35,143 bases of DNA from an archaeon (GTDB taxonomy: Archaea; SpSt-1190; DYHY01). The DNA lies in contig JAZDJS010000051.1 in the NCBI GenBank assembly GCA_043803745.1, positions 1-35,143 on the forward strand, read 5' to 3'. Below the pieces are notes generated by a model, which was not told the DNA's origin, ran no database searches, and saw only the letters and a program-made list of their open reading frames with translations. A program made the position numbers and the translations under genes. This document shows, piece after piece, positions 12,138 to 33,284 of this stretch; the first letter of the stretch is position 1, and each line of letters begins with the position of its first letter.

Positions 12138-12193
12138 GTCTCAAGCGGGATTTTGCTCCTCAGAGTATCCGTGCCTCAGCACAGAGAACCCGC
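12138..12193 (-). repeat. Diverged copy of the tRNA-Thr(GGU) T-arm and acceptor 3' strand with a 32-nt twin-hairpin insert in the T-loop
   Basis: Minus strand reads GCGGG TTC [insert 12154-12185] AAAT CCCGC TTGAGAC. The tRNA reads GTGGG TTC AAAT CCCAC TTGAGGC. Confidence 0.75.
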
Positions 12194-12246
12194 CGGTTTT
12201 CTACGCCCGTCAACGGATTTCTTTTTCAAAAGAAATGGGTTGTGCG

Positions 12247-12316
12247 TGGAGCCTCAAGTGGGATTTTCAATGCCGCAGCATTGATCCGTGCCCGGAGGAG
12301 CACGGAGAACCCACGG
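12247..12316 (-). repeat. Copy of the tRNA-Thr(GGU) 3' end including CCA with a 40-nt twin-hairpin insert in the T-loop
   Basis: Minus strand reads CCGTGGG TTC [insert 12267-12306] AAAT CCCAC TTGAGGC T CCA. Matches to the tRNA are 19 bp and 10 bp exact on either side of the insert. Confidence 0.85.
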
Positions 12317-12354
12317 AAAGCAAATCCCGCTGAGGCAGTTATACAAAGAAAAGG

Positions 12355-12426
12355 AGCCTCAAGTGGGATTTGAACCCACGGCCTCGTCCTTACCAAGGAC
12401 GCGCTCTACCGCTGAGCTATTGAGGC
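12355..12426 (-). tRNA. tRNA-Thr (GGU)
   Basis: Cloverleaf: GCCTCAA/TTGAGGC acceptor, GCTC/GAGC D-stem, CGTCC-TT GGT AA-GGACG anticodon arm, GTGGG-TTCAAAT-CCCAC T-arm, U73. Confidence 0.97.
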
Positions 12427-12517
12427 GCGCTCTCAAGCGCGACGAAATCCAGCTTTTTAGCCTTGCTGGATTGAGGCGTTCCTCTTGCTTGCACCTTTCT
12501 TGCCTCGATAGATTCAG

Positions 12518-12562
12518 GCTGAGTGGTCCGCAGACCATCAAGCTCCGCTTGACTATTGAGGC
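12518..12562 (-). repeat. Copy of the tRNA-Thr(GGU) 5' end with a 29-nt twin-hairpin insert between positions 10 and 11
   Basis: Minus strand reads GCCTCAATAG [insert 12524-12552] CTCAGC. The tRNA reads GCCTCAATAGCTCAGC. Confidence 0.75.
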
Positions 12563-12694
12563 GTGCGCGACAGCGCGACGGAAAAACCCACGCTCCGCTT
12601 TAAAAAAGCAGCGAAACCGGCGAGTTAGCTTGGCACGGGCGGTTTTCCCGAGCCAGTTTCCGAGTTTCTATCGACCACTCTAAACTTAGATAGG

Positions 12695-16826: not shown

Positions 16827-18731
16827 TCACCGCAGCCGTATCGCTTCCAAGTTCCTCGGAGCGACCGTCTCGATCCTGAACGCCTTGTGTATCGAGCGCA
16901 TCAGGTCGGCGCACTTGGAGTTCTCCCCGTGCTGGACAACGACCAGGCCCGGCCTGCTCCGCATGTCGCCTATGAAATTCATCAGCTGGTTCCGGTCCGA
17001 GTGGGCTGAAAAGCCGTCGACAGTGTGTACCGAGAGCTTGACAGGGATGCCCTCCTTCCTCGTTCCGCCCATCGATGGGACCGGCAGAATCGGCATGCCC
17101 CGCTGTATTTTCTTCCCAAGGGAGCCCTCTCCCTGGTAGTTTATGAAGAGGATTGCGTTGAGCTCGCTGTCCGCAAGGTTCTTCAGGTATTCCACCGAGG
17201 GACCGCCCGTGAGCATCCCGCTCGTTGCCATTATCACGCAAGGGGGCCCGGTAAGGACTGCTTCCCGTTCCTTCTTGCCCGCAACACGGCTGAAAACCTT
17301 CGACATAAGGGGGTTTTCCTCCTTTGAAAGTATCTGGTTCCGTATCTTCTCCGAAAGGAACTCCGGATATGTTGTGTAGATTGCGGTTGCGTCCCACATC
17401 ATCCCGTCAAGGTAGACCGGGAACTGCGGAAGAGTTCCCTTCTTGACGAGCTCGTCAATCAGGAGCATTATTTCCTGGGATCTTCCGACCCCCAGGACCG
17501 GAATCAGGAGTTTGCCTCCCCGTTCGATTGTTTCCTTTATAATTCGCGCAACCTCGTCTTCCGCGGCTGCAATCGGGGGTTGGATATCCCCGGCCGCCCC
17601 GTATGTTGCCTCAATTACAAGGGCTTCGCACCGGGGGAACTGGTTCCATGCGGAGTCGAGGAGCCGGGTCTTTGCATATTTGATGTCGCCGGTGTAAACA
17701 AGGTTGTATACCCCGTCGCCAATATGTATGTGCGTGACAGCCGAGCCGATTATGTGCCCCGCTTCGTAGAAGGTTATCCTGACGTCCGGAGTAATGTCTG
17801 TGACTTCCCCGTAATCAAGGGTTATCGTATGGAGCATTTCCTCGTGTATGTCGGACGACGAGTAAGCGGGCTTCTTGCCCTCGCTCTGCGCAATGTCAAT
17901 CGAGTCGAGCTGGAGGAGCGCCATCAGGGCGCGGGTCGGCGCGGTGCAGTAGACGGGCCCCCTGAAGCCGTACTTGAAAAGGAGGGGAATCAGACCCGAG
18001 TGGTCGAGGTGCGCGTGGGAAAGGACGACCGCGTCAAGCTTCGTTATGTCAAAGTCCGGCGCGTCAAGATAGGGGAACGAATTGTCGTCCCCTCCGGCAA
18101 CGTTTATCCCGCAGTCGAAAATGACCCTGCTTTCAGGCGTCTGGAGGAGGATGCAGCTCCGTCCAACCTCGCGGAAACCGCCGAAGGAGGAAAGGCGCAC
18201 CCAGGCGGGGGGTTTCGTCCCGGTGTAAATCCGGTTCCCGACCCTGTTGAGGAAGGTCGCTCGTTCCTTCGAGCGCTTGATCAGGATTTTCCGTATTGTC
18301 GATACGATGTCGCTCTTCAACGGAGGCGTCCTGAATATCTCGGGGGTCCAGAATGTCTCCTCCTTTATTTTCGCAAGGCCCTCGCCAGCCTTTCCGACAA
18401 TCACGGCGGGCCTTTCCGCCTCGATGAGGACCTTCGAGCCGCCGGAATCGAACTCAATCGAGCTTATCTCAGCCTCGCTGAAAAGCTCCCTGATTTTCTC
18501 CTCAGCGGGCTCAAGCTTCATCACAAGGGATGAATCGGCGCGAACGTCAATCCGCTTTTTGACCTCCTTGGCTATTTTCTTCACCAGGTCCGTAGAGCCC
18601 GTCACGAACTTCGGGTTGGCTGAAAAGAGGACAACGTTGGCTCCCTCGAACCTCTGGTCAGTTAACTTCGCATCCTTCGGAAGGCTCTGTTTTATCTTCG
18701 CGAACAGCTCATCCTTCGTAATCATCGGCAT
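16827..18731 (-). CDS. fttA: Beta-CASP ribonuclease aCPSF1 / transcription termination factor FttA
   Basis: N-terminal KH domains. GGFREVGRS, HAHLDH, AGHIIG, YTGD, GRSQE, TSGMLTGGP and FSAHSD motifs. Lies downstream of psmB, as is usual in archaea. Confidence 0.95.
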   Translation of the reverse strand: MPMITKDELFAKIKQSLPKDAKLTDQRFEGANVVLFSANPKFVTGSTDLVKKIAKEVKKRIDVRADSSLVMKLEPAEEKIRELFSEAEISSIEFDSGGSKVLIEAERPAVIVGKAGEGLAKIKEETFWTPEIFRTPPLKSDIVSTIRKILIKRSKERATFLNRVGNRIYTGTKPPAWVRLSSFGGFREVGRSCILLQTPESRVIFDCGINVAGGDDNSFPYLDAPDFDITKLDAVVLSHAHLDHSGLIPLLFKYGFRGPVYCTAPTRALMALLQLDSIDIAQSEGKKPAYSSSDIHEEMLHTITLDYGEVTDITPDVRITFYEAGHIIGSAVTHIHIGDGVYNLVYTGDIKYAKTRLLDSAWNQFPRCEALVIEATYGAAGDIQPPIAAAEDEVARIIKETIERGGKLLIPVLGVGRSQEIMLLIDELVKKGTLPQFPVYLDGMMWDATAIYTTYPEFLSEKIRNQILSKEENPLMSKVFSRVAGKKEREAVLTGPPCVIMATSGMLTGGPSVEYLKNLADSELNAILFINYQGEGSLGKKIQRGMPILPVPSMGGTRKEGIPVKLSVHTVDGFSAHSDRNQLMNFIGDMRSRPGLVVVQHGENSKCADLMRSIHKAFRIETVAPRNLEAIRLR

Positions 18732-18763: not shown

Positions 18764-18843
18764 TTCTAGGTTCAGACTTCGCTTGGCGCTCAGCCGTTCC
18801 GTTTGTTTAGTTCTAGGTTCAGACCTCGGCATCCGCCTCAGCC
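18764..18843. repeat. Two-copy direct repeat with hairpin (47-bp period)
   Basis: TTCTAGGTTCAGAC at 18764 and 18811, each followed by YTCG-N-CTCAGCC. Confidence 0.75.
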
Positions 18844-32019: not shown

Positions 32020-32039
32020 TTTTTGTCCGCGGACAAAAA
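32020..32039. repeat. Perfect 20-bp palindrome, possibly a terminator or binding site
   Basis: TTTTTGTCCG|CGGACAAAAA directly after the sulfatase-like stop codon. Confidence 0.8.
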
Positions 32040-32062
32040 TCCTCCTCAGAGGACCTCCCGCG

Positions 32063-32113
32063 GCCACCAGTGGAATTTCCCTCCCGGACTTCGCTAACGC
32101 TCAGGAATCCACG
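32063..32113 (-). repeat. Diverged copy of the tRNA-Thr(UGU) T-arm and acceptor 3' strand with a 26-nt T-loop insert
   Basis: Minus strand reads CGTGGA TTC [insert 32079-32104] AAAT TCCAC TGGTGGC. The tRNA reads CGTGGG TTC AAAT CCCAC TGGTGGC. Confidence 0.75.
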
Positions 32114-32166
32114 TCAAGACTCTTTCTTCCCGTGAACGGCTTCTTTCTTTGAGAAAGAAGGGGCTC

Positions 32167-32181
32167 TGGAGTCACCAGTGG
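32167..32181 (-). repeat. Copy of the tRNA-Thr(UGU) 3' end including CCA
   Basis: Minus strand reads CCACTGGTGACTCCA. The tRNA reads CCACTGGTGGCTCC(T). Confidence 0.7.
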
Positions 32182-32237
32182 CTGAGCAACCATACAATGA
32201 AAGAGCGAAGTCCGGTGGAGACTGACCGAAGGGAAGG

Positions 32238-32310
32238 AGCCACCAGTGGGATTTGAACCCACGACCTGCGGTTTACAAAACCGCCGCTCTGCCAGCTGAG
32301 CTATGGTGGC
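32238..32310 (-). tRNA. tRNA-Thr (UGU)
   Basis: Cloverleaf: GCCACCA/TGGTGGC, GCTC/GAGC, GCGGT-TT TGT AA-ACCGC, GTGGG-TTCAAAT-CCCAC, U73. Confidence 0.97.
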
Positions 32311-32528
32311 GTGCTCTTCAGAGCACGGCACACACCCTCTTCGGAGGGTGGTGGTGTAACGAAGTTTTCGCACTTCGTTCCCATTTTCGTTACGCACTTC
32401 CTCGGACTTTTGGTCCTTGTCAGGCGTTTTTCACGCACTTCGCCGGTCTGCTGCCCGTCTCAAGCACTGCTTTTTTGCAGGAGACCCCCCTATTTTAAAA
32501 ACCTGCCCCTTCGCCGCGCTTCCTAGAA

Positions 32529-33284
32529 ATGGTTGAACTCGGAGAATCCTTCCTTATTGTCGATGAGCAGACGAGGGACGCATTCCTCTCCCGGCTCTCG
32601 GCGAAGACGAGAATCCAGACCGGGCACGGGTTCGTTGATGCGGAAAGGCTTTCCAAAAGCAGTTTCGGGGAGACTATCCAGTCCTCCACAAGGGACAACT
32701 TCATCCTCCTCAGGCCCGAGCTTCCGGATTTTATCGAGAAGCTCAGAAGGGGTCCCCAGATAATAACGATTAAGGACATTTCCTCGATTGCCGGCTACTG
32801 CGGGGTTTCCCCCGGGAAGAAAGTTGTCGAGGGCGGCGGCGGCTCGGGAGCTGCAACGATTTTCCTCGCCAACCTCGTTGGAAGCGAGGGAAAGGTCCAC
32901 ACCTACGAGATACGGGAGGATTTCTTTTCCCTTGTGCGGGACAACTTGGAAAGGTCGGGGCTTTCCGGGCGGGTTGAACTGAAGCTTGCGGACGTTTACG
33001 CCGGAATTGTCGAGGAGAACGTTGATGTGGTCTTGCTCGATGTTCCCGAACCCTGGCGCGCAGCCGGGCATGCGCATTCCGCCCTCAAGCTAGGGGGCTT
33101 TTTCGCCTGCTATCTTCCGACCGCGAACCAGGTAGAGCGCCTGGTTATCGAGCAGGAGTTCTTCAAGGAGTTCAGGGTTTTCACGATAATCGAATACGAC
33201 TGGCAGGTCAAGCTCGGGGCGACAAGGCCCAAGAACACCGGGCTCGTCCACACAGGGTTCATCTGCATTGCAAGGAAGCTTTGA
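32529..33284 (+). CDS. trmI: tRNA (adenine57/58-N1)-methyltransferase TrmI
   Basis: RGPQII..KD, VVEGGGGSG, YEIR, LDVPEPW, PTANQV and TRP.....HTGF. Confidence 0.93.
   Translation: MVELGESFLIVDEQTRDAFLSRLSAKTRIQTGHGFVDAERLSKSSFGETIQSSTRDNFILLRPELPDFIEKLRRGPQIITIKDISSIAGYCGVSPGKKVVEGGGGSGAATIFLANLVGSEGKVHTYEIREDFFSLVRDNLERSGLSGRVELKLADVYAGIVEENVDVVLLDVPEPWRAAGHAHSALKLGGFFACYLPTANQVERLVIEQEFFKEFRVFTIIEYDWQVKLGATRPKNTGLVHTGFICIARKL

Follow-up and report, generated by a model that had tools for sequence, protein, structure and literature searches.

Copies of tRNA ends recur beside their own tRNA genes in an archaeal genome and its relatives

More than half of the tRNA genes detected in the archaeal genome studied here are followed by a short copy of their own 3' end, separated from the intact gene by palindrome-bearing spacer DNA and often repeated in arrays. 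The same kind of duplication occurs in three relatives of the same order, and loci that are empty in one genome are filled in another. The reading that we favor, which in our judgment has about an even chance of being right, is that the copies are scars and arrays that miniature elements left at tRNA 3' ends by inserting there repeatedly and site-specifically. tRNA genes are a classic target of mobile DNA, and the route by which those of archaea came to be interrupted, split or permuted has long been in question.

The window, by which we mean the whole stretch of 35,143 nt that was analyzed, is contig C51 of a 1.23-Mb genome (G000; 51 contigs, 54% G+C, estimated completeness 90%). It encodes FttA/aCPSF1, a Rad50-like protein and an archaeal-type ProRS as identified with Pfam, and the genome has intron-bearing tRNAs. 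The best named relatives of the ProRS are labeled Bathyarchaeota and are only about 55% identical, which places the genome in a poorly sampled archaeal lineage.

All features of the tRNA-Thr(UGU) locus lie on the minus strand. The intact tRNA gene (32236..32310; ARAGORN; Rfam RF00005, 73 bits) ends in ...TGGTGGC-T-CC, with the CCA not fully encoded, and is followed by a 54-nt inserted spacer, here called M1 (32182..32235). The 3' part of M1 is a forward copy of a palindromic repeat, X, and the spacer contains a box A, GGACTTCGCT (32213-32204), and a box B, GCTCAG (32187-32182). Next comes CCACTGGTGACTCCA (32167..32181), a copy of tRNA positions 62-75 plus CCA recognized in the sequence and in the junction survey described below, which differs from tRNA-Thr(UGU) by one mismatch, G71 to A. 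Behind it lies a terminator-like twin-hairpin module matched by nhmmer (32118..32166), composed of GAGCCCC, a T-rich hairpin and CCGTTCACGGG, in which the two hairpins, ttctttctc-aaa-gaaagaa and then ccgttcacgg, occupy 32163-32129. A second copy follows in split form: the T-stem 5' strand plus TTC, GTGGATTC (32105..32112; alignment A1), a 26-nt insert with an inverted X, CTGAGCGTTAGCGAAGTCC (32079..32104; RNAfold and alignment A1), and a copy of tRNA positions 57-72, AAATTCCACTGGTGGC (32063..32078; sequence and junction survey). The insert interrupts the T loop of this copy after position 56.

An earlier note on this DNA had placed the 3'-end copy, the twin hairpin and the split T-arm copy at coordinates that are all correct on the sequence. 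The T-stem change that it described, from GTGGG/CCCAC to GTGGA/TCCAC, is likewise present, T61 of the split copy being compensatory to A53. Its 26-nt insert exists but can be described more precisely, as the dispersed palindromic repeat X in inverted orientation, a further copy of which lies in the spacer directly after the tRNA. Because insert and spacer hold X in opposite orientations, a 12-bp helix is expected between them in the Thr(UGU) trailer, and RNAfold predicts exactly such a pairing of AGCGAAGUCCGG in the insert with CCGGACUUCGCU in the spacer.

Beyond the split copy, the stretch 32020..32062 on the same strand is likely the ancestral 3' flank of tRNA-Thr(UGU), as judged from a match on contig C19. 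It consists of cgcgggagg, a hairpin that reads TCCTC-tgag-GAGGA in tRNA sense and that the earlier note had also found at this place (32053-32040), and a T-run hairpin. On C19, each copy in the array behind tRNA-Thr(CGU) is followed by the same flank as at Thr(UGU), and C19:14627-14660 is 100% identical to window positions 32040-32073, which cover copy and flank. The first 52 nt of M1 are also 100% identical in this array, within a 63-nt match (C19:14573-14635) made up of the last 11 nt called for the tRNA and the 52 spacer nucleotides. The two loci are on different contigs, and their tRNAs, when compared whole, differ at four positions. Under the site-specific insertion reading, at least two insertion events would be nested at Thr(UGU).

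The tRNA-Thr(GGU) locus, also on the minus strand, is built from the same kinds of parts. Its intact tRNA (12353..12426; ARAGORN and Rfam) is followed by a first split copy (12247..12336) consisting of GCCTCAG, 15 nt, GTGGGTTC, a 40-nt two-hairpin insert and AAATCCCACTTGAGGCTCCA, with a fold of -45 kcal/mol. A twin-hairpin module (12196..12254; nhmmer E 2.1e-8) and a second, degenerate split copy (12138..12191; GGGTTC, a 31-nt insert and AAAATCCCGCTTGAGAC) complete the downstream side. Upstream are two copies of the tRNA 5' end (12460..12570), GCCTCAATAGTCAAGCGG followed by a hairpin insert, and GCCTCAATCC. The locus as a whole has its T arm copied twice in split form and also holds a twin hairpin and a CCA-ended copy that folds as an acceptor-like stem, all with the acceptor sequence of their own tRNA, TTGAGGC. 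The recurrence of one arrangement at both Thr loci, each with the local acceptor, had been claimed before and is borne out here.

What the two loci have in common is an architecture and not a duplicated sequence. In plain-sequence alignment of the two trailers, which are not sequence duplicates of each other, the twin hairpin alone aligns; the local alignment score is 24 against 17.4 +/- 2.2 for shuffles, 5 of 300 of which reach 24. Both trailers fold better than shuffled sequences (z -2.90 and -2.80). When both Thr loci were compared with Rfam at the gathering threshold and at E <= 10, the tRNA alone reached the threshold, and the non-tRNA matches had E above 1e-4 and scores far below gathering.

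A survey of all tRNA loci, which the earlier note had proposed for this genome and its sisters, places the Thr loci within a general pattern. ARAGORN, run in two modes, made 46 calls, and 43 remained after three with implausible introns of more than 300 nt were dropped. A copy was counted when the last 10 acceptor-side nucleotides of a tRNA recurred with at most one mismatch within 400 nt downstream, and the tails of foreign tRNAs served as the control. By this measure 25 of 43 tRNAs are followed by their own 3' end, whereas foreign tails score in 26 of 1638 tests (1.6%); in a strict count that also leaves out three two-letter tails of only G and C, the figures are 22 of 40 and 24 of 1428. About 40-45% of the detected tRNA genes have no own-tail copy (18 of 43; strict count, 18 of 40). 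With Leu(CAA), Gly(GCC) and Lys(UUU), which were found by eye, the contiguous tRNA genes make up a complete set.

The duplications are strictly polar. Copies of the first 10 nt of a tRNA lie within 400 nt upstream of 12 of 43 genes (controls, 13 of 1476, 0.9%), and among the 43 tRNAs there are no 3' copies upstream and no 5' copies downstream. Long ORFs show no excess of such copies: the last 10 nt recur downstream of 20 of 731 (2.7%), with 97 of 3651 in the control. The 5' fragments extend to tRNA position 10 to 26 or so and stand about 30 nt behind TATA-like boxes of their own; they carry D-loop hairpin inserts or are followed by a terminator module, with the promoter and then the intact gene beyond. 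Decay of whole-gene tandem duplicates was rejected as a source of the copies, because it predicts wrong-side fragments and none are seen.

The 3' copies lie only 30-280 nt from the tRNA, often in arrays. Several loci have two or three of them (Thr-CGU, Pro-CGG, Glu-CUC, Arg-UCG and Gln-UUG), and the arrays at Gln(UUG), Pro(CGG) and, in the same-order genome G004, Thr(UGU) are examples of simple tandem duplication, with clear tandem units also at Arg(UCG) and Glu(CUC). Assemblies tend to break in such arrays, and contigs C50, C45, C14 and C10 end at tRNA loci of this kind. An assembly artefact is an unlikely source of the pattern itself, which occurs in four genomes and in one independent metagenome contig.

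The points at which copies begin are not spread evenly along the tRNA. Among 35 copies, 20 start at position 62 and 5 at position 57, and in the same-genus genome G001 the corresponding numbers are 12 and 2 of 18. The copies differ in length, measuring between 10 nt and 20 nt or more. In front of position-62 copies stands ...GCTCRG, with which motif X (GAYYTCGSY, 2-25 nt, GCTCARCC) closes, and in front of position-57 copies the T-stem 5' strand with TTC and then an insert that holds either an inverted X or a pair of small hairpins. The breakpoints fall in loops, at 56/57, at 61/62 and in the D loop.

X itself is an imperfect palindrome of about 20 nt, scattered through intergenic DNA in either orientation and also arranged in inverted pairs. 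Of 41 full matches, 19 lie near tRNAs where 1.4 would be expected, a strong enrichment, and 16 of these 19 are downstream on the tRNA strand. X is also present after protein genes, and two further copies on the plus strand of the window (18775..18843), each preceded by ttctaggttca, lie upstream of the FttA/aCPSF1 gene, which marks X as a dispersed intergenic repeat. In a survey anchored on X, copy identity is bimodal, with at least 12 of 14 matches in 13 of 31 copies and few intermediates; young age, or maintenance by selection or gene conversion, could account for this. A scan of viral contigs for X returned at least 120 contigs with a single match, roughly the chance number for a collection of this size by a rough estimate.

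The twin hairpin has a distribution of its own. A profile built from nine instances gave 27 nhmmer hits at E <= 0.01 (best E 1.4e-11); the nine seeds themselves account for nine of these and a tandem duplicate of a seed for a tenth. The module directly follows the discriminator or CCA of Leu-UAA, Leu-CAG, Arg-GCG, Leu-GAG, Ala-GGC and Ala-CGC, among others, and some instances precede the TATA box of the next tRNA gene. The T-rich hairpin and this placement suggest a terminator or insulator module. The twin-hairpin spacer that had been described as part of the Thr architecture is thus present there without being specific to it, since it directly follows many tRNA 3' ends.

Comparison of empty with filled alleles points to insertion. 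At tRNA-Ser(CGA), G001 is empty, with ACCACTC and a hairpin directly after the tRNA. At the same place G000 carries a spacer of foreign DNA that closes with X, then a copied tRNA end and, behind it, the homologous ACCACTCcaagttgagg... flank, and G003, a genome of the same family, has a terminator module and a split copy before that flank. An intron-bearing tRNA that ARAGORN calls Ile(tat) is likewise empty in G001 and filled in G000, where the terminator module stays behind the distal copy. The spacers at these two loci have no homology to the ancestral flank, so foreign DNA was inserted and the tRNA end duplicated, as opposed to a tandem duplication. The modules, 45-110 nt in length, carry no ORF except at Ser(CGA) in G000, the only cargo-bearing case, where a 1.4-kb segment with a Fic-domain gene has direct repeats of about 95 nt on both sides, each comprising tRNA positions 61-75 and a module.

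Homologous modules also occur at different tRNAs. A unit of about 110 nt is found at Thr-UGU, Gly-GCC, Ala-GGC and Ala-CGC (alignment A1, 68% mean column identity), and the units on contig C50 are 77% identical to those in the window. Each unit contains CCA, the terminator module, a spacer, the T-stem 5' strand with TTC, an inverted X, and AAAT with the T-stem 3' strand and acceptor. The string TTCCTGAG..CG.TAGC is invariant in all four loci, and the tRNA-derived parts follow each local tRNA. The earlier proposal that a general mechanism acts locally on different tRNA genes, instead of a single duplication, gains support from this unit as it does from the genome-wide counts and from three relatives of the same order.

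Five other genomes were surveyed at their 30 best Rfam tRNA loci each, with empty or G/C-only tails dropped. Own-tail copies are found in G001 (same genus, 14/29; control 20/734), G003 (same family, 13/32; control 35/898) and G004 (same order, 8/26; control 17/586), compared with 0/26 in a genome of the same class but another family (G006; control 27/566) and 1/32 in another lineage (G019; control 1/940). For the 27 anticodons common to G000 and G001, copies are present in both genomes at 9, only in G000 at 10, only in G001 at 5 and in neither at 3, and orthologous Thr loci in the relatives have different module types. The spread of copies across the order together with their differing presence within one genus marks an order-wide trait with quick turnover. 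The G71 to A mismatch of the middle Thr(UGU) copy also occurs in G003, so one or more of the modules may be old and conserved. A metagenome scan with a gapped tRNA-end pattern found one related contig, L171, in which Thr(UGU) is accompanied by a position-62 module and by a 5' fragment whose D loop holds an insert; a scan with a 24-nt piece of the spacer gave no matches.

In the insertion reading, lineage-specific modules of about 45-110 nt, made up of X, small hairpins and often a terminator module, would be inserted repeatedly into the tRNA 3' end, between the T loop and the discriminator. Each insertion would leave an intact tRNA on the promoter side and, on the far side, a second local 3' end that starts at tRNA position 57 or 62, reaches about position 75 and is joined to the old downstream flank. 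Repetition of the event and unequal exchange between copies could then build tandem arrays, and the copies would later decay or vanish quickly. The most likely agent would be a site-specific recombinase acting in trans, for which the T arm and acceptor end would serve as attachment site and X as the arm next to it. On this view the split T-arm copies may represent attachment sites of the element itself, with X in the loop. Split copies fit a published model in which attP copies carry an insert and tRNA fragments lie beside a rebuilt gene (PMC3293823). What the sequences show directly is that tRNA ends are duplicated, with a set polarity and recurrent junctions, within this lineage, at sites that are empty in one genome and filled in another, and inside homologous units at different tRNAs; we infer that the modules are mobile, that an enzyme is involved and that the copies have no RNA function.

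Domain searches of G000, which is 90% complete, gave no matches to Phage_integrase and none to Cas1, RVT_1, Y1_Tnp or TnpB; Y2_Tnp had no match in G000 or in the control genomes, which makes that search uninformative. Agents of the IS91, IS200/IS605 and TnpB kinds were set aside for want of matches in G000, the Y2_Tnp search having no positive control. Among five genomes of the order, a tyrosine integrase (426 aa) is encoded only in G001, where its gene begins 70 nt after tRNA-Cys and adjoins a C5 methylase, indicating that tRNA-targeting integrative elements exist in the genus. The only Cas1 of the order, also in G001, is found with Cas12a, Cas4 and Cas2 in a type V-A CRISPR locus. A casposon was rejected as the source, since G000 has no Cas1, that of G001 belongs to a CRISPR locus, there are no evident terminal inverted repeats and copy length is variable.

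Several features count against the insertion reading. Known integrative elements are all far larger than modules of 45-110 nt, the variable copy length fits neither a fixed target-site duplication nor one attachment core, and one element family would have to acquire the T stem and acceptor of more than 20 different tRNAs. The failure to find enzyme domains in G000, the restriction of the integrase to G001, the plain tandem arrays, the bimodal identity of X-anchored copies and the mismatch common to G003 weigh on the same side. A simpler origin, which we regard as unlikely, is local partial duplication without a mobile element, through slippage or template switching at hairpin-prone, heavily transcribed tRNA DNA, with X and the hairpins inserting secondarily into dispensable pseudo T and D loops. 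A duplication with one end inside the gene predicts exactly the polarity observed, and tandem units do exist at Gln(UUG), Pro(CGG), Arg(UCG), Glu(CUC) and Thr(UGU) of G004; the loop breakpoints, the occurrence of X away from tRNAs and the lack of any transposase or integrase found in G000 can be counted for it as well. Against it stand the spacers of Ser(CGA) and the Ile(tat)-called tRNA, which lack the homology to the ancestral flank that tandem duplication demands, the protein genes, which have no excess of end duplications, and the presence of one non-tRNA unit at four different tRNAs.

The copies could instead function in the pre-tRNA trailer, with the cognate 3'-end mimic, whether or not it has a T-arm-like hairpin and CCA, signaling processing or termination, acting as a decoy or forming a small minihelix-like RNA, which seems to us rather improbable. 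Modules that lie between the tRNA and the terminator module should be co-transcribed, the trailers fold better than shuffles, the Thr(GGU) copy forms an acceptor-like stem with a CCA end, a T stem keeps its pairing through a compensatory change, copies are mostly either perfect or absent, and one variant copy is common to G003. A trailer function is nevertheless difficult to reconcile with the variation in presence, type and number of modules between species of one genus, with the 40-45% of detected tRNA genes that lack a copy, with the lack of an Rfam family match and with X occurring in both orientations. The 5'-acceptor partner expected before box A matches no better than controls (mean 4.25 vs 3.89 of 7, n = 24), and a tRNA-like minihelix is accordingly not supported: the pairing holds for the Thr(GGU) copy, but over 24 modules a tRNA's own 5' strand does no better than a foreign one. 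Reading the DNA in antisense suggested a C/D-box guide RNA with the tRNA-end complement just before CUGA; this candidate was rejected by eye because there is no C box, the spacing is irregular and the predicted target nucleotide shifts between tRNAs. Finally, the pieces might be remnants or exons of intron-bearing, split or permuted tRNAs that X copies bring together. Archaeal tRNA introns are known in the loops where the inserts sit, the sole tRNA-Leu(CAA) has a 34-nt D-arm insert, so the genome does hold non-canonical introns, and two X copies are predicted to form the 12-bp helix. We nonetheless consider this origin highly improbable, given that the contiguous tRNA gene set is complete without the pieces, that the fragments lack positions 26-48 and so cannot assemble a full tRNA, that T-loop inserts occur in copies only and never in functional genes, and that no bulge-helix-bulge could be drawn by hand at the 56/57 inserts of Thr(UGU) and of Thr(UGU) in G001.

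Site-specific insertion remains our preferred reading, and the lineage would display the process at high density, with more than half of the tRNA genes of G000 affected, copies gained and lost quickly from one sister species to the next, and inserts found in loops of dispensable copies only. Direct comparison of empty with filled alleles makes both the insertion mechanism and the enzyme testable. Independently of mechanism, arrays of tRNA ends can mislead tRNA annotation. A bolder and, in our estimate, improbable proposal is that an active recombination system in this archaeal order recognizes the shape of tRNA DNA, at junctions 56/57 and 61/62, and inserts palindrome-bearing mini-elements while re-templating the local tRNA end. 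If true, it would define a new class of structure-targeted mini-integrative element and provide a living source of loop inserts and of 5' and 3' fragments moved out of place, the raw material for tRNA genes with introns or in split or permuted form.

Several known systems resemble parts of this picture. REP/BIME palindromes and MITEs are, like X, dispersed and intergenic, in both orientations and in inverted pairs. Unlike them, X is strongly tied to tRNA 3' ends and to local tRNA duplication, and in contrast to REP/RAYT systems G000 has no RAYT/Y1_Tnp match. Casposons duplicate a target of 14-15 bp. Casposons and CRISPR repeat duplication (PMC4779613) resemble the present case in their tRNA 3'-end target and typical duplication of about 14 nt, whereas here Cas1 is missing from G000, terminal inverted repeats are not evident and copy length is not fixed. 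Disrupted archaeal tRNA genes offer another likeness, in D- and T-loop inserts, complementary flanks and a deep-branching archaeon with non-canonical introns (PMC3218864 and PMC4090602); unlike in those genes, the inserts here are in dispensable partial copies and no complete tRNA assembles.

Further parallels are archaeal integrative elements of the SSV and pNOB8 types, in which a directly repeated tRNA end lies beside a rebuilt intact gene, and whose attachment copies can have mismatches and even inserts, can be inherited and can be accompanied by 5' fragments upstream (PMC3293823). tRNA fragments from integration are described as common in prokaryotes, and the known integrase cases are elements of 1.8-23 kb with an integrase, which are rare, with 7 in 20 Thermococcaceae genomes (PMC9897764). 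Full-text literature searches turned up no account of a genome-wide set of short cognate tRNA-end copies, and the supplements of PMC9897764 and PMC3293823 may list more fragments. The present loci differ from integrase elements in having copies at more than half of the tRNA genes, no genes between tRNA and copy except in one case, no integrase found in G000, and modules that are not kilobase-sized, the Fic case reaching 1.4 kb. As in SSV- and pNOB8-type elements, a directly repeated tRNA end flanks inserted DNA and the tRNA stays intact, and as in integrase elements there is an empty site in a relative and the ancestral flank lies on the distal repeat, as seen here for Ser(CGA) and the Ile(tat)-called tRNA. 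The phenomenon is best filed as a miniature, pervasive new form of tRNA-targeted insertion with attachment-site duplication.

The only tRNA-Leu(CAA) gene of the genome that contains the window (G000) lies outside the window, on the plus strand of contig C10 (17898-18018). In our own alignment, its D arm carries a 34-nt insert between positions 22 and 23, and the gene was not called by ARAGORN in either mode. CCA is encoded, followed by the twin-hairpin module to which we ascribe a terminator role. Because the sole copy of this tRNA gene contains the insert, G000 makes use of non-canonical tRNA introns.

The tRNA-Thr(UGU) gene lacks a nearby TATA box in the region upstream of its 5' end (32311-32500, minus strand), where a ttttaaaata box occurs at a distance of about 185 nt. 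Within this long leader, GAAGTGCG is repeated three times, and a hairpin (gtgctc-tgaa-gagcac) sits directly against the tRNA 5' end, with comparable hairpins abutting the other Thr tRNAs upstream. Adjoining this locus is a gene for a GCD14/TrmI-type tRNA m1A methyltransferase (32529-33284, plus strand), a proximity that we take as coincidence. Elsewhere in the window, two copies of the dispersed imperfect palindrome X, each preceded by ttctaggttca, occupy the region upstream (18775-18843) of the gene for the termination factor FttA/aCPSF1 (16827-18731, minus strand), and the mRNA strand would fold there into hairpins containing tandem G.A pairs.

Several G000 contigs end inside arrays of tRNA-end copies (C50:1-400, C45:1-16, C14:7060-7236, and C10:23084-23159). 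The His array is divided over C10 and C14, and the array with which C50 begins seems to be the continuation of the tRNA-Gly(GCC) locus that opens C45. These breaks within the arrays mean that the tRNA loci of G000 are under-assembled.

In the same-genus sister genome G001, a type V-A CRISPR-Cas locus (C3:96800-102350) encodes Cas12a (1239 aa), Cas4, Cas1, and Cas2, in that order, with no repeat array seen up to the contig end. At the tRNA-Cys locus of G001 (C12:40663-42217), a 5' fragment of the tRNA (positions 1-20) and then a terminator module lie upstream of the gene, and a tyrosine integrase (426 aa) followed by a C5 DNA methylase lies downstream; a search over 17 kb revealed no clear distal repeat. 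In G000, a 1.4-kb insertion behind tRNA-Ser(CGA) (C45:3510-5090) contains a gene for a 297-aa Fic/DOC-domain protein and lies between direct repeats of about 95 nt, each consisting of the tRNA 3' end plus a module.
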